From positions 35,753 through 99,752 of the forward strand of contig JAQUKX010000004.1 in assembly GCA_028718865.1 (NCBI GenBank): DNA of 64,000 bases, read 5' to 3'. Numbering within the stretch: position 1 is the stretch's first letter; each line of letters starts with the position of its first letter. Shown in pieces: positions 4,441 through 47,193 of the stretch. The notes under the pieces were generated by a model that ran no database searches, was not told the DNA's origin, and was given only the letters and a program-made list of their open reading frames with translations. Position numbers and translations under genes: made by a program. Source of the stretch: Patescibacteria group bacterium. GTDB lineage: Bacteria > Patescibacteriota > Patescibacteriia > UBA1558 > GWA2-36-10.

Positions 4441-5364
4441 TTAAATCACAATCTGCACTTCTTCTGTCAGCTGAATGCCGTACTTATCCCTTATTTGCTG
4501 TTTAATAAAGCTGATAAGCATAATTACTTCTTCAAAACTGGCCTTATTGGCGTTGATAATATAGTTGGCATGCTTTTCTGATATCTTGGCTCCGCCAATA
4601 CTATGACCTTTTAAACCGGCTTTTTCAATCAAATACGCCGCTGGAATTTTTTTAAATTTTTCAAATTTTTCTATTTCCAATTTTCTAGCCTTGAGCGCTT
4701 CAATGTCAGTATCTTCAAACTTTACATTTTTAAAGATACAGCCGGCTGAAGGCTCATTGGGCTGGGTATCCTGTCTATACTGTAATCTTTCTTTGACAAT
4801 TTGCCGTGCCTTTCCCACATCGCCTTTGGTTAGCTCTATTTCTGCTTCTATAATTATCCAGTCTTTTTTTTCTTTAAAAATACTATGGCGATAGGTAAAA
4901 TTAGCCTGTGATCCTTCCATTTCTTTGAGTTCATTATTTTTGTCCAGATAACTTATCTTTTTAACTATACTATCCATAGCTACTCCATAAGTGCCGGCAT
5001 TACCTCTGATAGCTCCGCCCACAGTTCCAGGGACACCAGCAGCAAATTCCAAACCGACCAAGTTTTCTTCCAAAGAACGATTGAGCAAAAAAGCCAAGGG
5101 TACGCCACAACCAACTTTGACTTTATTGTTTTCAAATTCCAGTTGATTAAAATCCAGTTTCAAAACCAAGCCTTTTATCCCCTGATCAGAAACCAGCATA
5201 TTGGTACCCCCGCCCAAAATAGTCAAAGGCTGTTTTTCTGTTTTAGCCCAAGTTAAAGTATCTTGCAAGTCTTTCAAATCGCTGACTTTGGCAAAATACT
5301 GAGCTGGACCGCCAATTTTAAAACTAAGATAATCTTTGAGCAATATATTTTTTTGGATATTCAT
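4441..5364 (-). CDS. murB: UDP-N-acetylenolpyruvoylglucosamine reductase
   Basis: 307 aa; FAD-binding GGG(T)N and C-terminal MurB domain (SAGCIFKN...). Confidence 0.9.
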   Translation of the reverse strand: MNIQKNILLKDYLSFKIGGPAQYFAKVSDLKDLQDTLTWAKTEKQPLTILGGGTNMLVSDQGIKGLVLKLDFNQLEFENNKVKVGCGVPLAFLLNRSLEENLVGLEFAAGVPGTVGGAIRGNAGTYGVAMDSIVKKISYLDKNNELKEMEGSQANFTYRHSIFKEKKDWIIIEAEIELTKGDVGKARQIVKERLQYRQDTQPNEPSAGCIFKNVKFEDTDIEALKARKLEIEKFEKFKKIPAAYLIEKAGLKGHSIGGAKISEKHANYIINANKASFEEVIMLISFIKQQIRDKYGIQLTEEVQIVI

Positions 5365-27902: not shown

Positions 27903-28047
27903 TTTAACTTTATTTTTCTTAATTATTTCCAATAAATTATAACAGAATTGACCGGTGAAAACAAGCAAATTAACAAGCCGTCAGATTGGTTTACAGAAAT
28001 CTTAAAAACAAAAAACAGCCCCCAAGACCGCTAAAGCTCTTTTTATA

Positions 28048-29071: not shown

Positions 29072-30010
29072 TTATCTGGCTATAAAATAAAGTCCCAAAG
29101 CAATCAAAATAATCGCTAATATTTTTTGCCAAACTATTAAGGCCGAATTATCTTCTTTTAATATCTTGGGATTAAATAAAGTAATAAGAAAAGTAAATAC
29201 CAAGATAAAAGCATACTGCAAGCCCTGCAAAGAAGTAACCAGAGCCACCGAACCCAGAGCCACGGCGTAATTCTGCAAAATAGAACCTGCTGCTCCCAAG
29301 CCTTGCGTGCCGAAAAAAATCAAGGGCGATTTTTTGTTTTTCTTTGACTGCTTGAGATCTTTTTTAATTTCTTGGCGCCAATTTTTTTTCAGCAAAAAAA
29401 CCAACACCGCCGCAAAAGTTCCTAGCCTAATCCAAATAAAAGCGCTGCCAAAATCCTGCAGATTATAAGCTTGCTTGCTGGCTGTCCAAAATGAAGCAAA
29501 GAAAAAAGCCGCCACCAAAGATAGAAAGACACTTTGCCATTTTTGAGCCAATTTGATGCCCAGAGCTTTTTTGATTTCCTGCCAGATGCTATGGCGACTG
29601 GATATACTGGCAATCATCAAAGTTCCCAAAACCAGATAATAAATCGCCAGCCACTGAAAAAAACTGAATTTCTCACGGAAAAAAATCAAGGAAAATAAAA
29701 CCACAAAAACCGGCACTGTCCCGCCTACCAGCGTAAAAATTTTGGAAGCATCATTGCCTCGCAAAGCGCTGTACAAAAAGAAAATACCGCCGGCAAAAAG
29801 AGCGCCGGTAAACAGATTGAAGAAAAACAAGCCCCAGCCCGGCCAAGCCAAAAACCAAGGCGCAGCCAAAACCACTATTGCGCCAAAGAGTCCCACCAAA
29901 AAAGCGTAAGTGCGCGGTCCAGGTATCACCTTTTCCACAATAAATTTATCAGCCACATTGACTATGGCCATAAAAAAATAAGCAAAAATTGCCACTATAA
30001 GCCAATTCAT
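29072..30010 (-). CDS. EamA/DMT-like multi-pass membrane transporter
   Basis: 312 aa, about 10 helices in two halves; 4-nt ATGA overlap with upstream OLD-like gene. Confidence 0.5.
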   Translation of the reverse strand: MNWLIVAIFAYFFMAIVNVADKFIVEKVIPGPRTYAFLVGLFGAIVVLAAPWFLAWPGWGLFFFNLFTGALFAGGIFFLYSALRGNDASKIFTLVGGTVPVFVVLFSLIFFREKFSFFQWLAIYYLVLGTLMIASISSRHSIWQEIKKALGIKLAQKWQSVFLSLVAAFFFASFWTASKQAYNLQDFGSAFIWIRLGTFAAVLVFLLKKNWRQEIKKDLKQSKKNKKSPLIFFGTQGLGAAGSILQNYAVALGSVALVTSLQGLQYAFILVFTFLITLFNPKILKEDNSALIVWQKILAIILIALGLYFIAR

Positions 30011-31341
30011 AAATTATCAATTATTTCTTTTATCTCTGACATTATTTTGGATTCAAATTCATTTTTACTAATTAGGCTGGCTGCTCGCAGAGCATTGAGA
30101 GATTTACTGTTATCATTTTGATAACTACGAGGATAATGAGATTCTAACGCTCCTTTGGAAAAAATAAAGATATTATTATTTTTTAATTGGACGACGAGCT
30201 CACTGGAATTAAGCGGCGGCAAGTGAATGCCTAAGTGTTCAGTCAAAGAATCAATGTAGTTATTTTTTAAAGCATCGTTATCTAGCATAATAGCAAAATC
30301 AATGGCAAAAGATCGCAGTAAATCCAAATAAATATTGGTATTGCCTTTGCCGTGAGTTTGGATGACTTTTATTTCCTTTTGACCATGATAAAATCTATCA
30401 ATCAGCCCCCGCATCAGCAGACGATCAGACACCCCTTCCACCAAAAGCACCTTGTCGGCAAAAAACATTTCCAAATTATCAGCGTTTAATTCCTGCAAAA
30501 GACGCTGGTAATTGTTATAAACTTTTTTATCCAGCGTAAAGGCCAAGGTGCTTTTACCTTCTTTGACCACCCGCACCAACTGGGGCAAAGTAGCCGGCGT
30601 AATAAACAAAGGCGAATGCGTGCTGAAAAGTATCTGGCCAGCCCAAGAATTTTGCATGGCCCAAAGCAATTTTTTGATCATGGCCGGATGAAGATGGGTC
30701 TCGGGCTCATCTACCATTACTACGCTATAATTGGGATGAAAAACATAAAGCAGCATAGTAAAAATCCGAAAAAATCCTGAACCCAAGCGATCAATAGTCA
30801 CTCGCCTCTGCCCCTCATACAAGCCATCATGGCCATAGTTGATATCCAGAGCGTTTTCCCTGGCAGAAATCTTGGCAAAATGCCTTTTCAAACTGTCTTT
30901 GAACTTTTCCAAATTGGCCGGATAGCGCTGCAAGCTGTGCCAGTCCATCTCTATTTGCTTGATATCAAAAAAAGCCGCTTCATCCAATCTCTTGACGCTT
31001 GACGATAAAATTATTTTCAAAGACTGATTATAAGCCAATTCTTTTTCCTTAAAAACAATTTTCCTTTCCTGATTTTGCAGAATAAAAACTCCTTCTTTGT
31101 CCGGCAGTTGATGGCGCTTTACTTCTTGCTCGTCAAATTCCAAATAAATTTCCAAATCGGCGTTGGCATAGTATATCTGCTCGTTATCCAGCGCCCCGGA
31201 CAAAGCAAACTCAATGGCATCTAAGACATTGCTCTTGCCGCTGTTGTTCTGGCCGATAAAAACAGCAATCAAAGACAAGTCTATCAGCATAGGCTGCTTG
31301 ATGCTTTTATAGGTATTGATTTTTATTTTTTTTATCAGCAT
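30007..31341 (-). CDS. OLD-family ATP-dependent endonuclease (ABC-type ATPase + Toprim)
   Basis: Walker A GQNNSGKSN; Walker B/D-loop/H-loop VVMVDEPETHLHP; C-terminal Toprim-like LLVEGVSDRLL ... IMLDNDA; start at MLIKKIK (31341) with a 2-nt gap to the upstream gene stop; the 490-aa ORF extension overlaps that gene. Confidence 0.7.
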   Translation of the reverse strand: MLIKKIKINTYKSIKQPMLIDLSLIAVFIGQNNSGKSNVLDAIEFALSGALDNEQIYYANADLEIYLEFDEQEVKRHQLPDKEGVFILQNQERKIVFKEKELAYNQSLKIILSSSVKRLDEAAFFDIKQIEMDWHSLQRYPANLEKFKDSLKRHFAKISARENALDINYGHDGLYEGQRRVTIDRLGSGFFRIFTMLLYVFHPNYSVVMVDEPETHLHPAMIKKLLWAMQNSWAGQILFSTHSPLFITPATLPQLVRVVKEGKSTLAFTLDKKVYNNYQRLLQELNADNLEMFFADKVLLVEGVSDRLLMRGLIDRFYHGQKEIKVIQTHGKGNTNIYLDLLRSFAIDFAIMLDNDALKNNYIDSLTEHLGIHLPPLNSSELVVQLKNNNIFIFSKGALESHYPRSYQNDNSKSLNALRAASLISKNEFESKIMSEIKEIIDNL

Positions 31342-31343
31342 TT

Positions 31344-32699
31344 CTAGAGCAAATGCACATCCTCTACTTCGCTTACCTTGCTGTGGAGCACTAAATTTTC
31401 TATATGGTAAGCGCCCATTTTGGGAGCATCCAAAAATCCTTCTACCGCTGCTTCCGCCAGCCAGCCTGAATCCAGCCAATCAAAAAGCCACTCGTCGACA
31501 TAAGCCGGATCAAGACTATCAACGCCCGAACCAATAGCCAAAAGCCAGCCGCGGTTGTAAATCTCCTGCGAGCCGACCGGCTCGGACATAATAATAGGCA
31601 GTCCCAGGCCAGTATAAAAAGTCAGCTCTGATGGCTTGGTCCATAAAATATCCGTTTTTCTTAAAATTTTGTTAAAAACGGAAAAGTAAGTCATTTTTTC
31701 CTCGGTGTAGATTATCTTTACATTATCGGAATTAAATAAGCCCAGCCTTTTCACTTCGTCCTCAAAATAAGTATAAACATCATTGCGAGTGCCGGCTACT
31801 AGATTGAGTTGGATATCCTTGGCCTTGATATGTTTTTTTAGCTTTTTCAAAATAGTTATACCGATATCGCGCTGCGCGCCAGCGCCGCCGACAGCAAAAG
31901 TGATAGTCAAAGGCCGTTTGGGTTTTTTTATTTTTTTGATTGGACAAAGATAGTCTTCTATCAGCTTGGCGTATTTTTTGCGATAAACACCGCGGGGGTC
32001 TAGATTATATACTCTGTCCGCCAAATCCGCCCGCAAAACCGATTGATCCAAGCCGCCGATATTTTCCGGCGGCAAAGGAAAGCCGGTGATAAAAATATTT
32101 TTCTCCCTGACGCCGTAGAGTTTTAAACGCTCTTTGACTCTTTTGTTGGGTGCCAGATAAATTATCCGGCTCTTGGACGGATTTGGCGGCGCCCAAGCAC
32201 GGGCAATATCGGCATCGCAAACCACTAAATATATCGGTCCTTTGTAATTATAATATTCAGCAAAGTAAGCCGGAACAAAAAAAGTGGTCAAAAAAGGCAA
32301 GGGTTTTTTATTTAGCTCTCTTATTAATTCTCGACCCAGGCCTTTTTTTACTTGATTAAAAAAATAATTCTGCTGGCTGGAATTAGCGGAAAGGTCGCGG
32401 CGCGGGTAAAAAGGCTCAATTTTCTGAAAACTGTCCATAATAGAAAAAGCCGCTGTGCCTAAAAGCGGAACATTTTTGAAACGAGAAATTATTTCATACC
32501 ACTTACGGCCACTTTGCCAAACTCTCTTTTCTCGAGAGTTGATGCCGGGGTAATTATTGGCATTGATAATACCGTGATAAGCTAAGGAGGCAAAAGGATA
32601 AGCCGCTCGCTGATGTCCGTAGCCCATGTCCACCGCCACAACATACATTTTTTCCGCCGGCAGCTTAGATACTCGGGCTTGAAGGGTTTTATTTTTCAT
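31344..32699 (-). CDS. GT-B fold glycosyltransferase, GT28-like (MGDG synthase/UgtP/MurG-like)
   Basis: 451 aa; N-terminal VDMGYGHQRAA (compare GGGH of MGDG synthases), C-terminal ITFAVGGAGAQ ... ILWTKPSELTFYTGLGLPIIMSEPVGSQEIYN resembling GT28 donor-binding domain; no nucleotide-binding P-loop. Confidence 0.5.
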   Translation of the reverse strand: MKNKTLQARVSKLPAEKMYVVAVDMGYGHQRAAYPFASLAYHGIINANNYPGINSREKRVWQSGRKWYEIISRFKNVPLLGTAAFSIMDSFQKIEPFYPRRDLSANSSQQNYFFNQVKKGLGRELIRELNKKPLPFLTTFFVPAYFAEYYNYKGPIYLVVCDADIARAWAPPNPSKSRIIYLAPNKRVKERLKLYGVREKNIFITGFPLPPENIGGLDQSVLRADLADRVYNLDPRGVYRKKYAKLIEDYLCPIKKIKKPKRPLTITFAVGGAGAQRDIGITILKKLKKHIKAKDIQLNLVAGTRNDVYTYFEDEVKRLGLFNSDNVKIIYTEEKMTYFSVFNKILRKTDILWTKPSELTFYTGLGLPIIMSEPVGSQEIYNRGWLLAIGSGVDSLDPAYVDEWLFDWLDSGWLAEAAVEGFLDAPKMGAYHIENLVLHSKVSEVEDVHLL

Positions 32700-35835: not shown

Positions 35836-36117
35836 CTATAGTACTGCGTCTTTGCAGGCTTTGGCTACTCGGAATTTGACCACGGTTTTGGCCGGAATAT
35901 TGATGGTCTCACCGGTGGCTGGGTTGCGTCCCTGTCTGGCAGCTCTAGCTTTTTTTACTAGTTTGCCCAATCCAGGAACAGTAAATTCTCCGTTCTTTTT
36001 GACTTCGCTGTAAGCGACGTCAGTCAAAGTGTCCAGCAGAGTAGACACTTCTTTTTTGCTCATGTTGGTCTTTTCGGCCAAGACATTGAGCAACTGTGCT
36101 TTGCTTAGTTTTGCCAT
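35836..36117 (-). CDS. hup: DNA-binding protein HU
   Basis: 93 aa; ...GEFTVPGLGKLVKKARAARQGRNPATGETINIPAKTVVKFRVAKA... HU/IHF arm. Confidence 0.9.
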   Translation of the reverse strand: MAKLSKAQLLNVLAEKTNMSKKEVSTLLDTLTDVAYSEVKKNGEFTVPGLGKLVKKARAARQGRNPATGETINIPAKTVVKFRVAKACKDAVL

Positions 36118-36247
36118 AAGCTTAAGTTTAATTATTTTAATGATTAATTTTCATCAATAAATATAGCACATTTATAAAAGTTTGTGAATATTTGTCAATA
36201 AAAATAGGCTAAAACACATACACATCCCCAAAAAAATGTCAAATTGC

Positions 36248-36283
36248 TAAAAAATTACCCAGCCCCTCGGCTAAGAGGCTGGG
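36248..36283 (-). terminator. intrinsic terminator of GC-rich islet A (minus strand)
   Basis: Minus strand: ACCCAGCCucuuagccgagGGGCUGGGUaauuuuuu, 27 nt below the stop of 36309..36610. Confidence 0.65.
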
Positions 36284-36308
36284 TAAGCTGTCTGCCGCAA
36301 AAAAACGG

Positions 36309-36610
36309 CTAGATCAGGTAGGCGATGTTGTAGCTACAACGAACCGTGTGTCCGTTGACAGCCCCACACTCGTGGCAGGGCTCGGCCGGTTGCTGAGAAC
36401 GGTCATTGGACTGATTACTCTGTTTTTCCTGGCTCATGCTAGCATCTCCTTGGGTTTGTTCCTGAGGGTTGACTGACGCTAAAATAGCGCCTCTTTCTTT
36501 CTTGATTTTCTGCCAACAACTGACAGGGTTGCAAAAAGCTTGTCCGCAATAAAGACAACGCCACTCTCCTTTGGGCAGGCTGCTTTGACAGCCGCTTTTT
36601 TCATCAGACA
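36309..36610 (-). CDS. hypothetical small Cys-rich protein (islet A)
   Basis: 100 aa from internal Met MSDEKSGCQSS...; AGGAGGA SD 5 nt upstream (gcttcAGGAGGAagcttATG); Cys motifs C-x2-C ... C-x4-C and C-x2-C ... C; GC-rich codons unlike the host. Confidence 0.55.
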
Positions 36611-36627
36611 TAAGCTTCCTCCTGAAG

Positions 36628-36876
36628 CTAAATGGCCGTATTGATGCCTCGTGGATCAAAGCCGCCGCCACACATGCAGTAGATGCTATCATCAGGACAG
36701 CGACAATTCTCCCTAAGAATAAAGGCAATGGAATGCTCGTAGCCACGACGGTGGCTTGAATTTGCTCTACAGCGCTCCAACAAAGCGTAGAGACTATCCA
36801 AAATGGCGATTTTGAAAGGTCCGAGGACCGGCCCTTTCTTGGGCTGATGCCTCAAATCAACTGACAACTGACTCAT
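36628..36876 (-). CDS. hypothetical small protein (islet A)
   Basis: 82 aa; SD GGGAGGTAAGGAGCA then ATG; C-terminal CRCPDDSIYCMCGGG; 17-nt gap to the next gene. Confidence 0.5.
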   Translation of the reverse strand: MSQLSVDLRHQPKKGPVLGPFKIAILDSLYALLERCRANSSHRRGYEHSIAFILRENCRCPDDSIYCMCGGGFDPRGINTAI

Positions 36877-37147
36877 TGCTCCTTACCTCCCTGTTGGTTG
36901 AAAAGATGAAAGTGAACCTGGAACTTAGCTAAAATTGAAATGTACTAGCCAAAAAACAACAAAAAAATCGCCTAAGTATTGGCGATTCGCGTTTTGGTGT
37001 TTAGAGGCTTGATTATTATTACCAGCAAAAAGCGACCGCCTAAGGCGAGAGCAAAATAATGCTAATAATGACAATCAAATTTCTAAACATATATTTATCT
37101 TAAATATAATAACATAAAATATAAAAATGTCAAATTAAAAAATGATT

Positions 37148-37180
37148 GAGCGGGCGGAAAGCAGTGCTTTCCGCCCGCTC
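37148..37180 (-). terminator. intrinsic terminator inside islet A
   Basis: Perfect 15-bp GC-rich stem GAGCGGGCGGAAAGC-agt-GCTTTCCGCCCGCTC; on the minus strand it is followed by aaucauuuuuu. Confidence 0.65.
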
Positions 37181-37184
37181 TTGC

Positions 37185-37325
37185 CTAAAAATGACGCTCC
37201 AATCCCTGGAAAAACTGCCGGATGATTTCCTCCTTTCTGGCTTTGGCTTTATTGTCCTCAGAACCGGCCGGCGAAGCCGAAGCAGGCAGATTTTCTCGGC
37301 CGGGAAGCTGATCTCTCGGATTCAC
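37185..37325 (-). CDS. possible 46-aa ORF with GTG start (islet A)
   Basis: GGAGGAgtagtcGTG then NPRDQLPGRENLPASASPAGSEDNKAKARKEEIIRQFFQGLERHF stop; hand-translated, below the ORF-track cutoff. Confidence 0.25.
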   Translation of the reverse strand: MNPRDQLPGRENLPASASPAGSEDNKAKARKEEIIRQFFQGLERHF

Positions 37326-37342
37326 GACTACTCCTCCTCTGC

Positions 37343-37558
37343 TTAAGGAAAAATCCTAGCCAAGCAAGACCGGAGGTCTTGCAGAACAAAGCGCCGGCAC
37401 TCATCGCCGTCGCAGCAGTCAAAAACCATACAGCCACGGCTGTACTCATAGCGAGCTGGCGCTCCGCAATTACTGCAGATTCTGACCTGACCGCTGGCAT
37501 CCAGCTGCGACTTGGGGTTCAACTGGTATTCCCTAGGTTCTTCCCTGTACTTGCTCAT
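37343..37558 (-). CDS. hypothetical small Cys-rich zinc-ribbon-like protein (islet A)
   Basis: 71 aa MSKYREEPREYQLNPKSQLDASGQVRICSNCGAPARYEYSRGCMVFDCCDGDECRRF...; SD gtcAGGAGGagctgacaATG. Confidence 0.55.
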   Translation of the reverse strand: MSKYREEPREYQLNPKSQLDASGQVRICSNCGAPARYEYSRGCMVFDCCDGDECRRFVLQDLRSCLARIFP

Positions 37559-37810
37559 TGTCAGCTCCTCCTGACTGCTTGTGGTTTGTTTGACCCTGAA
37601 TTGAAGAAGACTTCTAGACTTGGATGTGAAAAGAACAATCAAAAAAGGCCGCTTTTAGGCGCCCTTAGTTTCACTATACTCAAATTATCGGATATATGAA
37701 AAAACTAAGTCGCCAAACGACCAATGAAAAAGTAAAAGCTAAAGAATGACGAATTTGATCTTATATCCATAAATAAATCATAACAAAAATAAAAGATAAG
37801 TCAAGCAAAA

Positions 37811-38821
37811 TTAATCTTTTGCTTCAAAATCCAAAAAATAACCGAACCTAGCTCTTCCTCTATATTGCGGTTTTTTCAAATTCAAAGTAGTGATTATGCC
37901 GCGCGGACTCAAATCATAACCTTCTATTTTTACATCCCGACCGTCAACAATGGCCGTGGCCATTACCGGTTGAGGATGGCCTATGGCATAAGCCAATTTT
38001 ACCAAGACTTCTTTGGCCTGATATTTTTTCAAATACTTTGTAGCCAGATAACGAGCCATATAAGCAGCGCTACGATCAACTTTGGTGGCATCCTTACCGC
38101 TATAGCAGCCACCGCCGACTGGAATCTGCGGGCCATAGTTATCCACAATAATTTTACGTCCGGTTAAGCCGGTATCTGCCTCAAAACCTCCTTGGACAAA
38201 AGGACCAGCTGGATTGATAAAAATATTTTTATAATCCGGTACAATAGTATCTACTATTTCTTTTTGAACCAGTTTTCTCAATTGCTCAATCTCAATCTCC
38301 GGACTATGCTGGGTGGAAATAACTACGGTTTCCACTTGGCCGTTATTGATAGTGATTTGTGATTTGCCATCGGGCCGCAAATATTTTGCCAGCTCTGACT
38401 GGCCTTTTACCCTTACTTCCTCGAGCTTTCTGGCCAAATTATAAGCCAAGACATGTTCGCGAGGAAGGAGCTCTTTGGTTTCGCTGCTAGCATAACCCAC
38501 CATGATACCCTGATCGCCAGCGCCACCGGTATCTACTCCCCGGGCAATATCAGGGCTTTGCTTAACAATATTGACGAATATTTCCAATTCTTCATCATAG
38601 CCGATTTCTTTATAAACTTCCCTGGCAATTTGGGCGGCGTCAAACTTGGCGCTGGTAGTCACCTCGCCCATAATAACTAGCTGGCCATGCCCGCCCAAAG
38701 CTTCTACTGCCACCCGACTGTCGGGATCTTGCCTCAAACATTCATCTAAAATAGCATCCGATATCTGGTCGCAAACTTTATCCGGATGACCGTAAGTTAC
38801 ATTTTCCGCTGTCTTTAGCAT
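37811..38821 (-). CDS. metK: S-adenosylmethionine synthetase (short form)
   Basis: 336 aa; GHPDKVCDQISDAILD, GGAGDQGIMVGYA and other MetK motifs. Confidence 0.88.
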   Translation of the reverse strand: MLKTAENVTYGHPDKVCDQISDAILDECLRQDPDSRVAVEALGGHGQLVIMGEVTTSAKFDAAQIAREVYKEIGYDEELEIFVNIVKQSPDIARGVDTGGAGDQGIMVGYASSETKELLPREHVLAYNLARKLEEVRVKGQSELAKYLRPDGKSQITINNGQVETVVISTQHSPEIEIEQLRKLVQKEIVDTIVPDYKNIFINPAGPFVQGGFEADTGLTGRKIIVDNYGPQIPVGGGCYSGKDATKVDRSAAYMARYLATKYLKKYQAKEVLVKLAYAIGHPQPVMATAIVDGRDVKIEGYDLSPRGIITTLNLKKPQYRGRARFGYFLDFEAKD

Positions 38822-38842
38822 TTTTTCTACTTTAATTATTTA

Positions 38843-38990
38843 AAAAACTCTCCTTTAAGAGAGTGGATAAAAATTATCTTTCCCTCACAAAGGGTTGGAC
38901 TGAGCACCTTTCTCTGCCTGCCAGCTGGCAGACAGCAAGATGGTTGCCGGCGGATCACAGAGCCAATTCTCTCCCCGCTCTCTTGATAAA
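38843..38990 (-). promoter_or_regulatory. SAM-I (S-box) riboswitch with terminator expression platform, in metK leader
   Basis: Minus strand: UUAUCAAGAGAGCGGGGAGAGAAUUGGCUCUGUGAUCCGCCGGCAACC...AAGGUGCUCAGUCCAACC...GGGAAAGAUAA (P1 UUAUC/GAUAA, conserved AGAGNGG, GGCAACC, GGUGC, AGAUAA), then hairpin CCACUCUCUUAAAGGAGAGU plus UUUUUU before the metK ATG. Confidence 0.8.
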
Positions 38991-39109
38991 ACTTTTCCGC
39001 AACTGCTGCGAAAAATATTAAATTGTTAAAAATAGTATAGCTTATTTTGAAAATTTTGACAAATATGCAATAATAATAGAGTAAAAAATAAAAAAGGAGA
39101 AATATAAAA

Positions 39110-39337
39110 ATGATTTTTAAAGAATTGAAATCCCGCAGTTTTATAAAAACTCTTAGCTGGTTTATAGTGGGATTTTCTATAACTTTAGTTGCCTTTTCCC
39201 TGATTACTGGTAATATCAAAGAAGGCTTTCATGGCTCTATTGTTGTTCAATCAATCAAGCTCTTTGCCTATTATTGGCATGAGCGAGTCTGGAGCCGCCT
39301 CAAATACGGCAAGAAATTCAATCCTGGCTTAAAATAA
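39110..39337 (+). CDS. small 2-TM membrane protein (possibly DUF2061-like)
   Basis: 75 aa; SD aaAAGGAGaaatataaaaATG; ...YYWHERVWSRLKYGKK C-terminal motif. Confidence 0.45.
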   Translation: MIFKELKSRSFIKTLSWFIVGFSITLVAFSLITGNIKEGFHGSIVVQSIKLFAYYWHERVWSRLKYGKKFNPGLK

Positions 39338-39655: not shown

Positions 39656-40387
39656 CTACTCAATTATCACTTTGGTGCCTAGCTGAGCCCACCAGTATAA
39701 ATGCTCCATGTCTTTATAAGCAACATTGACACAGCCGTGGCTCATAGGCTGACCAAAATTATTATGCCAATAAGCGCCGTGAATGTAATAACGGTAGGTT
39801 TTGGTAGTAAAATGCAGATTCCATTTGGTATTGGGATAATCAAAGCCTACCCCGCCATAATGTTTGACTGGTACTTTATCCAAAATTTTAAACTCTCCTT
39901 TGGGCGTTGGCGTACGAGATAAGCCGCCGGAAATAGGAAAAGAGCCAAACTCTTTACCGCCAAAATAATAAGCCAAAGTTTGTTTTTTTAAATCCACTTT
40001 GATTATTTTTTCCAATTGCACTGGCTCGGGGTTGAGAGGATCAAAGCCGGCAGCTACTTCTGTTCCGTCTAGATACAAATCACCGTCGCTGTCTGGATTC
40101 ATCAGTCCAGTACCCAAAATCAATTCCCAATAATCATTGAGATAATCATTATCCGAATCAACGTCAATTAATCTTTTACCGTTTCCGTGACGAGGCGAAT
40201 AGCCATTTTTAATTTCCAAGCCATCAGGATAACCATCGCCATCGCTATCGGGATTAAAAGGATCAGTAAAATAAATATTCAATTCATCATAATCAGACAA
40301 ACCATCGCCATCGCTATCTATCACTGCCTGAGCTGACAAGCCTAAAGGAAAACTTAAAAAAATAATTGCCAAAAATATTTTTCTCAT
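39656..40387 (-). CDS. L,D-transpeptidase (YkuD domain) with N-terminal Asp-rich Ca-binding (thrombospondin type 3-like) repeats
   Basis: Signal peptide MRKIFLAIIFLSFPLGLSAQA (start 40387); four D-x-D-x-DG repeats (DSDGDGLSDYDE, DSDGDGYPDGLE, DSDNDYLNDYWE, DSDGDLYLDGTE); catalytic YIHGAYWHNNFGQPMSHGCVNV. Confidence 0.8.
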   Translation of the reverse strand: MRKIFLAIIFLSFPLGLSAQAVIDSDGDGLSDYDELNIYFTDPFNPDSDGDGYPDGLEIKNGYSPRHGNGKRLIDVDSDNDYLNDYWELILGTGLMNPDSDGDLYLDGTEVAAGFDPLNPEPVQLEKIIKVDLKKQTLAYYFGGKEFGSFPISGGLSRTPTPKGEFKILDKVPVKHYGGVGFDYPNTKWNLHFTTKTYRYYIHGAYWHNNFGQPMSHGCVNVAYKDMEHLYWWAQLGTKVIIE

Positions 40388-40448
40388 TTTTATTATTCTA
40401 AATAATATTTGATATATTAGCATATTTTTACCTAAAATTACAGCTGAA

Positions 40449-41573: not shown

Positions 41574-42725
41574 TCAATACTGACGGCTCCGGCGGCTGGC
41601 TTGACGACTAAAACGATGCGCTTCTTCCCGACTTTGCAGCAGAATATTTTTTATACTATCGGTCAACTGCTTAAACTGCTTGTCGGCTCCTCTGGTATAG
41701 ACTAGTTTATCACCGGCTAATTTGGAAATACCGACTATCGGCACTCTGATATTTTTTAATTTAAAAAAATTATCCACAAAATCAACCTGCGGCCGGCCGC
41801 CATCCAGCATAATAATATCAGGCTGGGGCCACTCATGATGATTAAAACGCCTAGTTAAGACTTCAACCAAGGCCCGCAAATCATCGGCGGCCGGAGCGCT
41901 TTTTATTTTAAACAAACGATACTGACTTTTATCAGCTTGACCGTTACTAAAAACTACCATGGATCCATAAGGCTCCTTGCCAGCCAAATGGGATATATCA
42001 TAACCCTCAATGCGGCTCAGGCCGGCCATACCGAAATCATCACGGCTGATTAAAGAAGCATCGCTGATATGTTTGAGGCTGGCTATCAAATCTGGATTTT
42101 CTTTGGCCAATTTTTTGACCAATCTTTTTTTGTCGCCTTGTAAAAGCAAAATTATATTTTTTATATTATTTTTATATTTTGCCCGACTGACTTCGCCAAC
42201 ACAAATACCTGGACACAGACCTATCTGATAATCAAAACAAGGCCGGCCTTGCTTGGGCCGACAAGTGCTATAAGGGAAAAGGCGACGGATTATGCGCAAG
42301 GCACCGCGCAGTAAATGCTGAGCCTGATAAGGCCCAAAAATATAAGCCTTGCTTTTGGGAAATTTTTTTAGCTGGCGACCGCGGACAATAAACGGATAAG
42401 GATAATCACCTTTGGCAATGACTATGTAGATAAAAGAACGGTCATCGCGATCACGGACATTATACTTGGGCCAAAATTTCTTGATCAAATTGGCTTCCAA
42501 AATTACACTGTCAAGGATAGTCTCGGTTTTTTCGTATTTAATATCATTAGCTTGGGTAACCATCTCTTCTATTCTTGGCTCCAAATCTTTTCGAAAATAC
42601 TGGGAAATTCTCTTTTTGAGCGAGCCAGCCCGGCCAATATAAAGCACTCCTCTCTTTTTATCCAAAAAGCGATAAACGCCCGGTGTATCAGGAAAATTTT
42701 TAATTTTATTTTTCAAATTCGGCAT
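41574..42725 (-). CDS. uvrC: excinuclease ABC subunit C, short form lacking the C-terminal (HhH)2 domain
   Basis: 383 aa; GIY-YIG (PGVYRFLDKKRGVLYIGRAGSLKKR), Cys-rich region, UvrBC-like helix and RNase H-like domain (EGYDISHLAG...); ORF stops where the HhH region would begin. Confidence 0.8.
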   Translation of the reverse strand: MPNLKNKIKNFPDTPGVYRFLDKKRGVLYIGRAGSLKKRISQYFRKDLEPRIEEMVTQANDIKYEKTETILDSVILEANLIKKFWPKYNVRDRDDRSFIYIVIAKGDYPYPFIVRGRQLKKFPKSKAYIFGPYQAQHLLRGALRIIRRLFPYSTCRPKQGRPCFDYQIGLCPGICVGEVSRAKYKNNIKNIILLLQGDKKRLVKKLAKENPDLIASLKHISDASLISRDDFGMAGLSRIEGYDISHLAGKEPYGSMVVFSNGQADKSQYRLFKIKSAPAADDLRALVEVLTRRFNHHEWPQPDIIMLDGGRPQVDFVDNFFKLKNIRVPIVGISKLAGDKLVYTRGADKQFKQLTDSIKNILLQSREEAHRFSRQASRRSRQY

Positions 42726-42726
42726 T

Positions 42727-45237
42727 TTATTTTAAATACTCTTTTAAATATTTGCCGGTGACTGATGCTTGATTGGCAGCCACTTGCTCCGGCGTGCCTT
42801 TGGCCACCAATTTGCCGCCAGCCTGGCCGCCTTCTGGGCCAAGATCAATCAGATAATCCATAGATTTGATGACATGAAGGTTGTGTTCTATCACCACTAC
42901 TGAGTTGCCCTTTTCTATCAGTTTGTTTAAAACTTTCAATAACAATTCTATGTCATGATAATGCAGGCCGACTGTGGGCTCATCCAAAAGATAAAGGCTG
43001 CGCTTACCCAGCTTATGAGTAAGCTCTCTGGCCAATTTTATCCTTTGAGCTTCACCGCCCGATAAGGTGGTAGCGCTCTGGCCGAGTTGTAAATAGCCAA
43101 GCCCGACTTCCTGTAAAACTTTTAGCTTGTCAATGATATGATAATTGCCGTCAAAATAATCTATGGCTTCCTCAATGGTCAATTTCAAAACCTCGGCGAT
43201 ATTTTTGCCTTTGTGCTTTACTTGCAAAGTTTCTCTATTAAACCTCTTTCCCCGACAAACATCGCACTCCACATAAACTGCCGGCAAAAAATGCATTTCT
43301 ATCAGCTTGTAGCCAGCGCCGTCACAAGCCTCGCAACGGCCACCTGCCCGATTGAAAGAAAATCTTGATAAGGTATAGCCGCGCTCTCTGGCATCAGGCA
43401 ATTGGGCAAAAAATTCTCTGATTGGCGTAAATATGCCGGTGTAAGTAGCAGGATTTGACCGCGGCGTACGGCCAATCGGCGACTGGTCTATCACGATTAC
43501 TTTGGCTACATATTCACTGCCTTCCAAACGGGTCAAGTCCTGCAGTTTGAATCTACCGGGACGGTTTTTGATAGCAGCCAAATTTTTGTAAAGCACATCA
43601 TAGAGCAAAGTTGACTTACCGCTGCCGGATACTCCGCTGATGCCGACCAGTCTTCGCAGAGGTATTTCTACTTGCAGATTTTTCAAATTATTAGCTCGGG
43701 CGCCGATTAATTTCAAACTTTCCGTGCTCCTCTGCCGTCTTTTTTCAGGTACAGCAATACGCCTATCGCCGACAATATAATCCACTGTCATTGACTGAGC
43801 CGTATTTTTCTTGGCCAAAACCTGTTTGCTAGGCCCGGCAATTACGACCTCGCCGCCATGCACTCCAGCCATCGGACCCAAATCAACCAAATAATCCGCA
43901 TCCAAAATAGTCTGCTCATCATGCTCGACCACTATCACGGTATTATTTTTGGCTCGCAAAGATTTGAGAGTATCTATCAGCTTCTGAGTATCTCTTTCGT
44001 GCAGGCCTATGGTCGGCTCGTCCAAAACATAAAGGGTGCGGGACAAATGCGAGCCGATTTGCGAAGACAGCCTGATGCGCTGGGCTTCGCCGCCTGAAAG
44101 CGTATGCGCCCGCCTATCTAGCGTCAAATAATTCAAGCCAACTTTTAGCAAAAACTCCAAACGGCTGATTATCTCCACTACTACCGGCTCAGCTACTGCC
44201 CTGTCCTTGGTCGGCATTTTTTCAAAATAAGTATTGAAAAATTCCTGCGCTTGATCAATCGGCAAGGCTGTCAACTGGGCAATGTTTTTATTGCGGATTT
44301 TGACTGACAAAGTTTCGGGTCTCAATCTCTGGCCACCACAATCAGCGCAAGCTTCGTCGTTTTCCCAAGAGGCTACTCCCAAGCCATTACAAGCCGGGCA
44401 AGCGCCGTGCGGGCTATTGAAAGAAAAAAGCCTAGGCTCCACTTCGGGAAAAGAAAAATTGTCCTGCGGGCAAGTCCAATTGGAAGAAAGTAAAAACTCT
44501 TCGGGCTTTGACTTATCATCGTCAAATAAAACTGTCATTACCGATTGGCCGTAATCAAGGGCGTTTTCTACTGCCTCGGACAAACGGGATTGGTCGCTCA
44601 GCAATACTTTGTCCACGATGATATCTATGTCATGCTTTTTGTATCTGGCTAGATTTATCTTTTCATGCAGATTGTGATAGCGGCCGTCAATTCTGGCTTG
44701 AGAATAACCCAAAGCCAGATAATCATACAGGAGCTGATAATACTCGCCCTTACGGCCTCGGATCACTGGCGCTAAAATACTGACATACTGCTGCTTCAAT
44801 TCTTTGCCGCGCTTGACAATAATGTCTGCCATTTCATCCACTGACAGCTTTTGAATTTTTTGTCCGCAAAGCGGACAAAATACTTCTCCCAGCCGTGCGT
44901 ACAAGACCCGCAGATAATCATAAATCTCAGTCAAGGTGCCGACTGTGGAACGCGGATTGTGGCTCAAAGACCTCTGATCAATGGAAATAGACGGCGCTAG
45001 TCCGATAATCTCATCAACGTCTGCCGGCTTCATTTGTCCCAAAAATTGCCGCGCATAAGGCGATAGCGATTCAATATAGCGCCTTTGGCCTTCGGCAAAA
45101 ATAGTGTCAAAAGCCAAAGACGATTTGCCGCTGCCGGAAACGCCGGTGATTACCGTCAATTGATTATGAGGTATAGTCAGGCTGATATTTTTCAAGTTGT
45201 GCACTCTGGCGCCCTTGATAATTATATTTTCTTCCAT
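42727..45237 (-). CDS. uvrA: excinuclease ABC subunit A
   Basis: 836 aa; two ABC ATPase modules (GVSGSGKSSLAFDT / GVSGSGKSTLLYDV) with zinc-finger Cys clusters. Confidence 0.92.
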   Translation of the reverse strand: MEENIIIKGARVHNLKNISLTIPHNQLTVITGVSGSGKSSLAFDTIFAEGQRRYIESLSPYARQFLGQMKPADVDEIIGLAPSISIDQRSLSHNPRSTVGTLTEIYDYLRVLYARLGEVFCPLCGQKIQKLSVDEMADIIVKRGKELKQQYVSILAPVIRGRKGEYYQLLYDYLALGYSQARIDGRYHNLHEKINLARYKKHDIDIIVDKVLLSDQSRLSEAVENALDYGQSVMTVLFDDDKSKPEEFLLSSNWTCPQDNFSFPEVEPRLFSFNSPHGACPACNGLGVASWENDEACADCGGQRLRPETLSVKIRNKNIAQLTALPIDQAQEFFNTYFEKMPTKDRAVAEPVVVEIISRLEFLLKVGLNYLTLDRRAHTLSGGEAQRIRLSSQIGSHLSRTLYVLDEPTIGLHERDTQKLIDTLKSLRAKNNTVIVVEHDEQTILDADYLVDLGPMAGVHGGEVVIAGPSKQVLAKKNTAQSMTVDYIVGDRRIAVPEKRRQRSTESLKLIGARANNLKNLQVEIPLRRLVGISGVSGSGKSTLLYDVLYKNLAAIKNRPGRFKLQDLTRLEGSEYVAKVIVIDQSPIGRTPRSNPATYTGIFTPIREFFAQLPDARERGYTLSRFSFNRAGGRCEACDGAGYKLIEMHFLPAVYVECDVCRGKRFNRETLQVKHKGKNIAEVLKLTIEEAIDYFDGNYHIIDKLKVLQEVGLGYLQLGQSATTLSGGEAQRIKLARELTHKLGKRSLYLLDEPTVGLHYHDIELLLKVLNKLIEKGNSVVVIEHNLHVIKSMDYLIDLGPEGGQAGGKLVAKGTPEQVAANQASVTGKYLKEYLK

Positions 45238-45339
45238 AAATTTAATTAAAAATTTCTGCGGACAGATAATACTACGAGCGATTTAGGCGAAGCCGTTAAG
45301 CGAATAATATTATCTGGAAGCGATATTATTCGTTAGTTA

Positions 45340-47193
45340 TTATTTTTTAATTTTTGGCTTAGCTTCAATATCCAAAAATCTTTCCATTTTTTTAATAATG
45401 GTTTTAGGTTCTATTTTGTGTTTTTTATTATAAGCCAGTTGTAAAAAACGGCGGCGATTGACTTCATTGATTGCTCTTTTGATAGAACCAGTGAGCTTGT
45501 CGGCATAAAGTATTACCTGGCCTCTGACATTTCTAGCTGCTCGCCCCATAGTCTGAACCAATGAAGTTTCACTGCGCAAAAAGCCTTCCCGGTCAGCATC
45601 CAAAATCGCCACCAAAGACACCTCTGGCAAATCCAAACCTTCCCGCAAAAGATTGACGCCAATCAAGACATCAAACTTGCCGCGCCGAAAATCCAGCAGA
45701 ATATCCGTCCGCTCTATTGTCTTGATATCCGAATGAATATAATTGGATTTTATGTTTTTTTTCTTTAAATAAGCGTGCAAATCCTCGGCTTGACGCTTGG
45801 TCAAAGTATTGATTATTGTTCTTTCTTTTTTACTACTGATTTTTTCTATTTCTTTGATAATATCGTCTATTTGGCTTTGATTATTTTTTTTGTCAAAAAC
45901 CGGCCGGACTTCTATTGGCGGATCTATCAAGCCAGTAGGCCGGATAAGCTGCTGGGCTACTTGCCGACTGTGCTCAAGTTCCCATTTGCCTGGAGTGGCT
46001 GAGGTAAAAATAGTCTGCCCAACGCGGCTGATAAACTCATCAAATTTTAGCGGTCGATTATCCAGCGCTGAAGGCAAGCGCCAGCCGTATTGCACTAGAG
46101 TTTCTTTGCGACTTCTGTCACCCTCGTACATACCTCTAACTTGAGGCAAAGCAATATGCGACTCATCCATAATAGTCAAAAAATCTGGCCGACCGTCTTT
46201 GGCTGGAAAATAAGCCAGCAAAGTATCCGGCGCTTGGCCAGCCGGCTTGCCCGTCAAGTGGCGGGAATAATTTTCTATGCCATGGCAGTAGCCCAGCGAA
46301 GCCAGCATCTCCATATCATAGCGAGTCCGCCTTTCCAGACGCTCCTGTTCCAGATAAAGTTTTTTCTTGGCCAGATAAGCCAGCCTTTCTTTGAGCTCGG
46401 CTTTGATATCCCTTATGGCTCGCTTGGTTTCTGGCTGGGAAGAGACAAAATGCTTGACTGGAAATAACAAGGCTTCTTGCAAATCTTCTTTTACTTTTCT
46501 GGTCAGTTTATCTACCAGCAAAATTGAACTAATTTTTTGTTCAGTAAGCTCTAAACGATAAATCAGCTTCTGGGCAGCCGGCATTATTTCAAACACATCC
46601 CCCCTGACTCGGAAAAGCCCTCTTTTCAATTCTCCGGGCGTGCGAGTAAATTGGATATTGACCAGTTGTTTTATCAAATCGCCTCTGACTATATTCTGCC
46701 CCAGAGTCAAATGAAGGCAAGACTGCAAATAATTGACCGGTAAGCCGAGATTGTAAATACAGGAAACCGAAGCCACTACTATCACATCTCTTCTGGTCAA
46801 AAGAGCGGAAGTAGCTTGATGGCGCAAGCGGTCAATTTCATCATTGATCATTGCTTCTTTTTCTATATAAGTATCAGTGATAGGCATATAAGCCTCAGGC
46901 TGATAATAATCATAATAAGAAACAAAATAATTAACCGAATTTTCCGGAAAAAAATTCTTATACTCACGATAAAGCTGAGCAGCCAGAGCTTTGTTGGGCG
47001 CCATTACCAAAACCGGCTTGTCAAACTGAGCAATTACATTGGCCATAGTAAAAGTCTTGCCCGAGCCAGTTACTCCCAAAAGAGTTTGATAATCATAGCC
47101 TTTTCCCAATCCAGCAATAAGCCTGTTTATAGCTTGAGGCTGATCTCCGGCCGGCTCAAAAGGCGCTTTTAATTTAAATATTTTTTTAGTCAT
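45340..47193 (-). CDS. uvrB: excinuclease ABC subunit B
   Basis: 617 aa; LGVTGSGKTFTMANVI Walker A, helicase motifs, C-terminal UvrB/UvrC interaction region. Confidence 0.92.
   Translation of the reverse strand: MTKKIFKLKAPFEPAGDQPQAINRLIAGLGKGYDYQTLLGVTGSGKTFTMANVIAQFDKPVLVMAPNKALAAQLYREYKNFFPENSVNYFVSYYDYYQPEAYMPITDTYIEKEAMINDEIDRLRHQATSALLTRRDVIVVASVSCIYNLGLPVNYLQSCLHLTLGQNIVRGDLIKQLVNIQFTRTPGELKRGLFRVRGDVFEIMPAAQKLIYRLELTEQKISSILLVDKLTRKVKEDLQEALLFPVKHFVSSQPETKRAIRDIKAELKERLAYLAKKKLYLEQERLERRTRYDMEMLASLGYCHGIENYSRHLTGKPAGQAPDTLLAYFPAKDGRPDFLTIMDESHIALPQVRGMYEGDRSRKETLVQYGWRLPSALDNRPLKFDEFISRVGQTIFTSATPGKWELEHSRQVAQQLIRPTGLIDPPIEVRPVFDKKNNQSQIDDIIKEIEKISSKKERTIINTLTKRQAEDLHAYLKKKNIKSNYIHSDIKTIERTDILLDFRRGKFDVLIGVNLLREGLDLPEVSLVAILDADREGFLRSETSLVQTMGRAARNVRGQVILYADKLTGSIKRAINEVNRRRFLQLAYNKKHKIEPKTIIKKMERFLDIEAKPKIKK

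Follow-up and report, generated by a model that had tools for sequence, protein, structure and literature searches.

A 64,000-nucleotide (nt) stretch of DNA from a Patescibacteria group bacterium (contig JAQUKX010000004.1, positions 35,753 to 99,752), here called the window, carries an islet of four small open reading frames (ORFs) on the minus strand between metK and hup. The locus raises the question of what these orphan mini-proteins are and how their synthesis is controlled. We propose, with a probability of roughly 55%, that the islet consists of two independently transcribed cassettes (ORF1 with ORF2, and ORF3 with ORF4) of small, probably zinc-binding proteins, and that a transcription attenuator of the leader-peptide type controls each of them. 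All islet features lie on the minus strand. The genes and the terminators that close the two cassettes are listed below.

37811..38821, minus strand: metK, three S-AdoMet synthetase domains (Pfam)
37343..37558, minus strand: ORF1, 71 amino acids (aa) with seven Cys (C-x2-C-G ... C-x4-C-C-x4-C); Shine–Dalgarno sequence (SD) AGGAGG
37185..37325, minus strand: ORF2, 46 aa with zero Cys; GTG start, SD GAGGAGG
37137..37180, minus strand: predicted closing terminator of cassette 1, a 15-base-pair stem (37148..37180), AATCA and U6 (37137..37142)
36628..36876, minus strand: ORF3, 82 aa; QPKKGP near the N-terminus, IAF-x-LR-x-NC-x-CP-x-DS-x2-C-x-CGGGF near the C-terminus
36309..36611, minus strand: ORF4, 100 aa; LPKG-x-W-x-C-x2-C-x-Q-x-FC-x-P-x2-C, a variable polar linker, then C-x-EC..H-x3-CSYNIA-x2-I
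36249..36286, minus strand: predicted closing terminator of cassette 2, 14 pairs at 36255..36286 followed directly by U6 (36249..36254)
35836..36117, minus strand: hup, Bac_DNA_binding (Pfam)

An initial annotation of this DNA had placed four small minus-strand ORFs here, with ORF1 to ORF3 at these same coordinates; it began ORF4 one base short, at 36610, and gave the second pair a gap of 17 nt where 16 nt separate ORF3 from ORF4. The closing hairpins with U-tracts that it described are both present, the second near but not exactly at its 36248..36283. Its division into two transcription units agrees with our finding of a predicted promoter and terminator for each pair.

The best-conserved part of the islet is the leaders of the two cassettes, which were absent from that annotation. 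Each is about 210 nt long, follows a sigma-70-like promoter and contains a hydrophobic mini-ORF. Four segments can be recognised downstream of the promoter: segments 1 and 2 form a hairpin (1:2), and segment 3 can pair either with segment 4, giving an intrinsic terminator, or with segment 2, giving an antiterminator. For comparison we used homologous loci (L082–L090), obtained from the contigs of ORF4-family proteins and from a JGI scan with the family alignment. The window and L082 share about 90% identity in leader 1, and 1 of the 51 nt of the leader 2 mini-ORF is different in L083. For hup of the window and L083, the synonymous divergence (dS) is 1.3, which means that neutral sites are saturated; that the leaders are nearly unchanged despite this argues that they are under selection.

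The leader of cassette 2, which we call type 2, has the following parts.

37106..37133, minus strand: promoter-like site, TTGACA, 16 nt, TG-TATTAT; 11 of 12 matches
37040..37090, minus strand: type-2 mini-ORF encoding MFRNLIVIISIILLSP, then stop; no SD, predicted 5′ untranslated region of ~8 nt; holds the 5′ arm of a long stem (37060..37089)
36998..37027, minus strand: 3′ arm of the long stem, predicted to lock the mini-ORF and hairpin 1:2 (37037..37047)
36961..36988, minus strand: predicted leader terminator, GAATCGCC..GGCGATT plus U-run, conserved in homologous leaders
36933..36946, minus strand: conserved box AGTACATTTCAATT downstream of the leader terminator, found also in L084

The type-2 peptide is unchanged in L083, reads MFRSLIIIISIILLTP in L086, L088 and L089, and starts with MFRNLVIIISIILL in L090. 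It is conserved residue by residue (MFR[NS]LI[VI]IISIILL), with 5–6 Ile among 16 codons in every lineage. Variable columns of the mini-ORF number 3, 1 and 5 at the first, second and third codon positions, and all changes are synonymous or conservative. The pairwise identity is 91% for the mini-ORF and 89% for the 5′ stem arm that it holds, compared with 64% for the pairing partner of this arm. Because the arm within the mini-ORF is better kept than its partner and its changes are synonymous or conservative, the pattern suggests that something other than base pairing also constrains it, translation being the simplest candidate. The long stem itself is also conserved: 89.5% of the cells in the stem alignment are paired, against 29–57% when the partner is slid, and five pairs have changed on both sides. 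The folding energy of leader 2 corresponds to z = −4.1.

A conserved peptide with its start codon buried in a long stem could alternatively be a functional hydrophobic peptide, either a type I toxin-like product or a small membrane peptide, with the stem acting as a translational lock and the Cys-rich genes merely lying downstream. The type I toxin mRNAs of Ibs/Sib and Fst have a start codon buried in this way. We regard this explanation as quite improbable. With 16–24 residues, the peptides are not long enough to cross a membrane, no promoter for an antisense RNA is apparent, and the peptides of the type-1 leaders, described next, are poorly conserved outside a hairpin. Moreover, a peptide gene standing on its own would have no need of a terminator/antiterminator set, yet the stop codon always falls in segment 1:2 of one.

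The leader of cassette 1, here called type 1, has the parts listed next.

37777..37804, minus strand: promoter-like site, TTGACT, 16 nt, TG-TATGAT; 10 of 12 matches, extended −10
37705..37770, minus strand: type-1 mini-ORF encoding MDIRSNSSFFSFYFFIGRLAT, then stop; no SD, ATG exactly 7 nt past the −10 box
37699..37722, minus strand: hairpin 1 (segments 1:2, GGTCGTTTGGCGACT), comprising hairpin 37708..37722 and U6; contains the TAG stop of the mini-ORF and is present in all type-1 leaders
37641..37664, minus strand: predicted leader terminator (segments 3:4, GGGCGCCTAAAAGCGGCC plus U6); segment 3 can alternatively pair with segment 2; conserved in all homologous leaders
37625..37640, minus strand: conserved box GATTGTTCTTTTCACA, just past the leader terminator

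Since the ATG of the mini-ORF lies only 7 nt after the −10 box, the cassette 1 mRNA is predicted to be leaderless. Hairpin 1 is predicted to act as a pause site or a first terminator. Equivalent promoter sites precede every type-1 leader of L088 and L089. Type-1 mini-ORFs have 21–24 codons (L082/L083, two in L088, one in L089), with 22–24 codons and the same placement of the ATG in L088 and L089; the type-1 copies of L082 and L083 are incomplete and end before the start codon. The peptides are rich in Phe and Tyr in the window, in L082/L083 and in the second copy of L088 (L088-B), and have a mixture of Phe, Tyr, Ile, Leu and Val in L088-A and L089.

Whether such leaders can switch was examined by folding nine of them (five type 2, four type 1), each up to its terminator, with a 30-nt ribosome footprint masked at successive codons. 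With the footprint on the stop codon or the few codons before it, the terminator forms with a probability of 0.93–1.0, the type-1 leader of the window being lower at 0.66. With the footprint in the hydrophobic stretch, segments 2:3 and 1:4 pair and the probability of the terminator drops to ~0. Free type-2 RNA folds into the terminator, since hairpin 1:2 is locked by the long stem. In dinucleotide shuffles of the upstream region, carried out for eight leaders (the type-2 copy of L083 was left out), a switch of equal size arose in 0–1 of 100 shuffles for six leaders and in 8–9 of 100 for the other two. In silico, the leaders combine a 5′ short ORF, an intrinsic terminator ahead of the genes, and a mutually exclusive antiterminator that depends on the position of the footprint.

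These properties suggest the following mechanism. Transcription would start at the sigma-70-like promoter and produce an mRNA headed by an SD-less, leaderless or nearly leaderless hydrophobic mini-ORF, whose stop codon lies inside hairpin 1:2. If translation ran smoothly to the stop, the ribosome would cover segments 1 and 2, segment 3 would pair with segment 4, and the terminator with its U-run would keep the Cys-rich genes off. If the ribosome instead stalled within the Ile-rich stretch of type 2 or the Phe/Tyr/Ile-rich stretch of type 1, segment 2 would be left free to form the antiterminator with segment 3, and RNA polymerase would read on into the genes, which are led by strong SDs. In type 2, an untranslated mini-ORF would pair with its downstream arm in the long stem, which would again result in termination. 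The likely input would be slow translation, caused either by a shortage of charged Ile, Phe or Tyr tRNAs or by arrest through the conserved nascent peptide. We consider it on balance probable that the leaders are attenuators. That they sense amino-acid supply is a tentative proposal, which we think less likely than not to hold.

The mechanism requires that the mini-ORFs are translated, and several observations suggest that they are. In every complete leader (window, L083, L086, L088, L089 and L090) the ATG follows the −10 box at a fixed distance of 6–9 nt in type 1 or 15–19 nt in type 2. Differences in mini-ORF length are always whole codons; the type-1 lengths from ATG to TAG (66, 69, 75 and 75 nt) are all multiples of three, and the other two frames of these mini-ORFs contain 0–4 stops each. 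We infer translation because of this fixed spacing and the whole-codon indels, together with the synonymous or conservative changes and the unequal conservation of the two stem arms.

The same observations bear on an alternative in which the leaders work independently of the ribosome, as riboswitch-like elements, as protein- or tRNA-binding attenuators or as leaky tandem terminators, the mini-ORFs being by-products of U-rich sequence and conserved hairpins. This is the most serious competitor, although we consider it unlikely. It would account for mini-ORFs without SDs, for the coincidence of the conserved C-terminal codons of type 1 with hairpin 1, and for the conserved boxes behind the terminators, which have no role in a ribosome-based model. 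It is also compatible with modest open-frame statistics: the type-1 frame stays open in dinucleotide shuffles with a probability of 0.24–0.45, and the product over four leaders is 0.011. It leaves unexplained the constant distance between ATG and −10 box, the codon-sized indels, the synonymous or conservative substitutions in the type-2 peptide and the 89% versus 64% identity of the stem arms, and no Rfam family matches the region at threshold. The boxes GATTGTTCTTTTCACA and AGTACATTTCAATT are placed 0–20 nt past the U-runs of the leader terminators and are shared by the leaders of L083, L084, L086, L088 and L089.

Covariance models built for the two leader types match leaders only in these islets. 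The two types give weak cross-matches with each other's model and are for this reason probably diverged copies of one element; at the DNA level no similarity between the two cassettes was detected, and a three-way leader alignment was uninformative. No further copies were found in the window or in 37 other loci. A match of the type-2 model in L028 (3430..3580) was a false positive, a long hairpin formed by the 3′ half of a tRNA and its own inverted copy, and a match to the leader pattern in IMG/VR (L091) was a chance match inside a phage gene. Rfam scans of the islet returned no family at threshold; Trp_leader (RF00513) scored 17.8 bits against a gathering threshold of 41 (E = 2.6) and Phe_leader (RF01859) 20.2 bits against 55 (E = 3.1).

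The leaders resemble known regulators in different ways. In the erm, cat and ARE-ABCF leaders of Firmicutes, which respond to antibiotics, stalling of the ribosome either allows an antiterminator to open or makes an SD accessible. As in those systems the leader peptides are short and their sequence matters, but the islet genes are not resistance genes. With the attenuators of amino-acid operons (trp, phe, ilv, leu, his, thr) the islet leaders share the promoter-proximal mini-ORF, the four segments that pair either as 1:2 and 3:4 or as 2:3, the intrinsic terminator before the structural genes, the mini-ORF stop at segments 1/2, and a group of Ile or Phe/Tyr codons immediately before segment 1. 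They differ in scoring far below the Rfam thresholds, in preceding orphan Cys-rich mini-proteins instead of biosynthetic enzymes, in having SD-less mini-ORFs that are leaderless or nearly so, and in their Patescibacteria host; in addition, the type-2 peptide is itself conserved, and the off state is locked by a further, long stem. In mycobacteria, leaderless polycysteine short ORFs are amino-acid-responsive attenuators (Canestrari et al., bioRxiv 10.1101/834739). These elements sense cysteine, and stalling unmasks a ribosome-binding site and acts on translation (bioRxiv 10.1101/834739). Both there and in the proposed islet mechanism, a leaderless short ORF comes first, and a ribosome that stalls within a run of like codons causes the mRNA to refold and the genes to be switched on. 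The terminator hairpins and U-runs of the islet, however, point to attenuation of transcription, and its tracts consist of Ile, Phe and Tyr codons, not Cys codons, although the regulated proteins are rich in Cys. A literature search linking Patescibacteria with leader-peptide attenuation found no report.

Several points weigh against the proposed attenuation and the nature assigned to its targets. At equilibrium, free type-1 RNA prefers the antiterminator, and equilibrium folding with a fixed footprint ignores co-transcriptional kinetics. There is no regulatory amino acid common to the type-1 peptides (L088-A has NFLKVYFII and L089 TYIRISFIL), and the type-1 open-frame statistics, modest when taken alone, come from U-rich sequence that yields Phe and Ile codons by composition. 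Covariation in the stem is limited, with only ~5 independent lineages. The downstream ORFs match no metabolic family, unlike the amino-acid genes behind classical attenuators. The AlphaFold models of the putative zinc proteins are unreliable, with predicted local distance difference test (pLDDT) scores of 48–51. Finally, transcription starts, termination and mini-ORF translation are all predictions.

Turning from the leaders to the genes, we asked whether the four ORFs are protein-coding. Between the window and L082, ORF1 differs at 10, 9 and 29 first, second and third codon positions, with a ratio of nonsynonymous to synonymous divergence (dN/dS) of 0.13. Between L086 and L088 the corresponding values are 5/5/20 and 0.18 for ORF3, and 6/7/13 and 0.22 for ORF4; for ORF4 of the window and L083, dN/dS is 0.39. 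ORF1, ORF3 and ORF4 are under purifying selection by this measure. Constraint on ORF2 is weaker, with dN/dS of 0.5–0.6 between the window and L082/L083 and 21/14/21 differences relative to L082; in L082/L083 its homologue starts with ATG, differs by a 6-nt indel that keeps the frame and ends at an unchanged stop position, and the C-terminal II-x2-FF-x-GLERHF is conserved. The initial annotation had held that unconserved frames without an excess of third-position changes would speak against coding. Because the frames are conserved in homologous DNA and the changes concentrate at third positions, the ORFs are very likely protein-coding, ORF2 less certainly so. The annotation had also dismissed the ORFs in alternative frames as artefacts, which fits our comparison: 37258..37500 is open in L082 only through a 4-nt indel that fuses the frame to ORF2.

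That the ORFs might be chance open frames in a GC-rich non-coding RNA is hardly credible in view of these ratios and the third-position excess, the in-frame indels and the conserved SDs. ORF3 and ORF4 are orphans in a word-indexed search, no Pfam match exists, and codon scores fall below the host average, all of which such an explanation would predict; against it, exhaustive HMMER searches recover a protein family, and the region has no Rfam match.

Translation initiation in the islet differs in style from that of the host, because most host genes lack an SD while all four islet ORFs have a 6-nt match to the SD core. Among 53 long ORFs of the window only nine have a match of at least 5 nt, and metK and hup have none. 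GGAGG at −5 to −16 occurs before 6 of 966 candidate starts (ORFs of 40–110 codons in the window), and four of these six are the islet ORFs. The islet also stands out in composition. Cys makes up 6–10% of ORF1, ORF3 and ORF4, compared with 0.61% in the long ORFs of the window, and the GC content of the islet ORFs is 0.50–0.52; overall GC and GC at third codon positions (GC3) are both ~0.5 in all lineages (window, L083, L088 and L089), while GC3 of the flanking genes is 0.27–0.46.

The proteins are new small-protein families found, in the databases searched, only in one Patescibacteria clade. Pfam, NCBIfam, PHROGs and PADLOC yielded nothing above threshold, either for the four ORFs or for the additional small ORFs of L088 and L089. 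In a word-indexed search of 5.8 billion proteins ORF3 and ORF4 matched only themselves, and ORF1, annotated by NCBI as hypothetical protein PHO91_02190, had a single relative (80% identity). An exhaustive HMMER search with ORF4 yielded ten proteins at E ≤ 1e-3 including the query, with five family members at E values of 1e-17 to 2e-6; the ORF4 family obtained in this way comprises P0005–P0009 and P0013 (E down to 1e-17). Real families can thus be missed by word-indexed protein searches and recovered by exhaustive profile searches. ORF4 is only 36–39% identical in L086, L088, L089 and L090, loci in which the type-2 mini-ORF has hardly changed, and homologues of ORF3 occur in L084, L086 and L088. 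No homology was detected among the islet families, nor between ORF2 of the window and the 'HGCGM' ORFs of L088 and L090; ORF1 shows weak similarity to a 76-aa ORF of L089 (hhalign E = 0.0015).

The initial annotation suggested small zinc-ribbon or metal-binding proteins, and the Cys motifs are in keeping with this. C19, C22, C27 and C32 of ORF4 (C-x2-C-x4-C-x4-C) are invariant in the seven family members, five of the seven retain the C-terminal C-x2-C..H-x3-C, and the C-x-C..C-x-C motif of ORF3 is invariant. The N-terminus of ORF4 (C-x2-C-G-x3-C-x4-C) has the same spacing as a zinc knuckle (C-x2-C-x4-H-x4-C), with Cys in place of the knuckle His. Its turn P-x-G-x-W-x-C-x2-C is like that of PHD and rubredoxin knuckles, and the C-x2-C..H-x3-C motif is a second point of resemblance to zinc-knuckle or rubredoxin-like motifs. 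Profile searches of Pfam, NCBIfam and the PDB produced only scattered zinc-knuckle or rubredoxin-like matches below threshold (best E ~0.008–0.2). AlphaFold reached a pLDDT of 51 for ORF4 (alignment of seven sequences) and 48 for ORF1 (two sequences), so these models are unusable and give no confident fold. The conserved, knuckle-spaced Cys motifs make the proposed metal binding plausible; it finds no backing in family, PDB or model matches. From these motifs, the Cys-rich proteins of the islet are probably zinc-binding, and they may be zinc-dependent stress factors that bind nucleic acids or proteins.

The annotation had further considered precursors of ribosomally synthesised and post-translationally modified peptides (RiPPs). 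The products are indeed small and Cys-rich, relatives share C-terminal motifs (CGGGF, and FGC or HGCGM at the very end), and the adjoining metK supplies S-adenosylmethionine (SAM). No radical SAM enzyme, YcaO, lanthipeptide or other maturase, dedicated transporter or dedicated protease lies within 10 kb, however; a subtilase ~8 kb away and an EamA-family transporter ~6 kb away are not linked to the islet. The neighbours metK and hup lie side by side in genomes without the islet, and the Cys spacings resemble metal-binding knuckles. We consider RiPP precursors very improbable.

The history of the islet was traced in related contigs. A search of metagenomes for the same cassette, which the initial annotation had recommended, shows that they too hold the islet between metK and hup, with the order metK, islet, hup and a 700-aa membrane protein in L083, L086, L088 and L089. 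In L002 and L003, metK is directly next to hup. L002 nests among the carriers: its MetK shares 89% identity with the L089 protein, and its membrane protein 76% with the L088 counterpart. L003 is the outgroup. Most simply, the ancestor of the clade already had the module, and L002 lost it secondarily. Its content varies. A deletion in L083 (897..1376) has truncated ORF3 and joined its N-terminus, across the intergenic SD, to ORF4, so that one 159-aa product is encoded. L089 and L090 have a short ORF in place of ORF3, and in L089 a frameshift splits the ORF4 homologue (4947..5329). Other Cys-rich ORFs follow type-1 leaders in L088 (3469..3912) and L089 (4038..4559). They include a 63/64-aa family (PSG-x-GF..CYCR-x-CL..YD-x-CL; 50% identity over 34 aligned residues) and further ORFs of 73 and 76 aa. 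The closing terminator of cassette 1 carries a compensatory G-C to A-T change in L082.

Could the islet nevertheless be a horizontally acquired accessory module, be it for anti-defence, toxin–antitoxin or phage-derived, that is unrelated to host physiology and merely silenced by its leaders? Its GC content and GC3, its strong SDs in an SD-poor genome and codon scores below those of host genes would agree with this, as would its patchy distribution (missing in L002 and L003), the decayed copies (the L089 frameshift and the L083 fusion) and an OLD-family nuclease 5 kb away. Yet position and order are kept in at least five diverged lineages, the placement of L002 among carriers indicates loss, not gain, and the odd composition persists despite saturated dS, which argues against recent transfer. 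No repeats or mobile-element ends were found to flank the islet, and no integrase. PADLOC and PHROG gave no islet match, locus scans of IMG/VR with ORF1, ORF3, ORF4 and the ORF4 family found nothing, and a first JGI scan with ORF1 as query was likewise empty. With its position fixed across all carrier lineages, the islet does not have the character of a mobile or defence island. We judge an acquired module improbable; an anti-defence or toxin/antitoxin role, as once suggested, finds no support in these searches, and the term 'islet' should not be taken to mean a recent insertion, the module being syntenic across the clade.

Genes within 10 kb of the islet comprise metK, hup, the 701-aa membrane protein, uvrABC, a YkuD transpeptidase, an EamA transporter, a glycosyl hydrolase, the OLD-family nuclease and a DUF6938 protein. 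Upstream of hup, at 36170..36242 (minus strand), are two tandem TTGACA promoter-like elements; this block is common to relatives with and without the islet (L002, L083 and L086–L089), and the islet is placed between it and metK. Upstream of metK, a SAM riboswitch (S-box) at 38871..38992 (minus strand) scores 61 bits against a gathering threshold of 44.4, and the ORF called over it (38836..39219) is probably spurious. The OLD-family AAA ATPase/TOPRIM nuclease (30007..31479, minus strand) overlaps the DUF6938 protein (31344..32699, minus strand); the pair also follows the hup neighbourhood in L086 and may be a defence-type pair. Other features of the window are uvrC, uvrA and uvrB, clustered at 41574..47193 (minus strand), a YkuD L,D-transpeptidase with TSP3 repeats (39656..40423), and a tandem 153-nt duplication of 78% identity (26310..26615) inside a subtilase/FG-GAP gene (25884..27968).

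To our knowledge, almost nothing is known of how the very small, host-dependent cells of the candidate phyla radiation (CPR, Patescibacteria) sense their environment and regulate genes. The islet leaders most likely represent a new form of transcription attenuation by ribosomes, and we know of no case described from this phylum. A broader and more doubtful view, which we would give about one chance in four, is that the islet belongs to a lineage-specific set of operons under ribosome-stalling control, in which two related leader peptides, as nascent-chain or charged-tRNA sensors, sense host-derived amino-acid supply or translation stress and switch on fast-evolving zinc mini-proteins that remodel nucleic-acid or ribosome function. 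On this view the islet would serve a starvation response in cells that cannot make amino acids themselves. If the attenuator reading is true, the leaders would be compact, testable cis-acting sensors and an instance of leader-peptide attenuation with leaderless mini-ORFs outside amino-acid biosynthesis. The new families of Cys-rich mini-proteins would come with a predictable induction condition, offering a way into the function of orphan small proteins. The two covariance models can be applied to all CPR genomes to find other genes under the switch.

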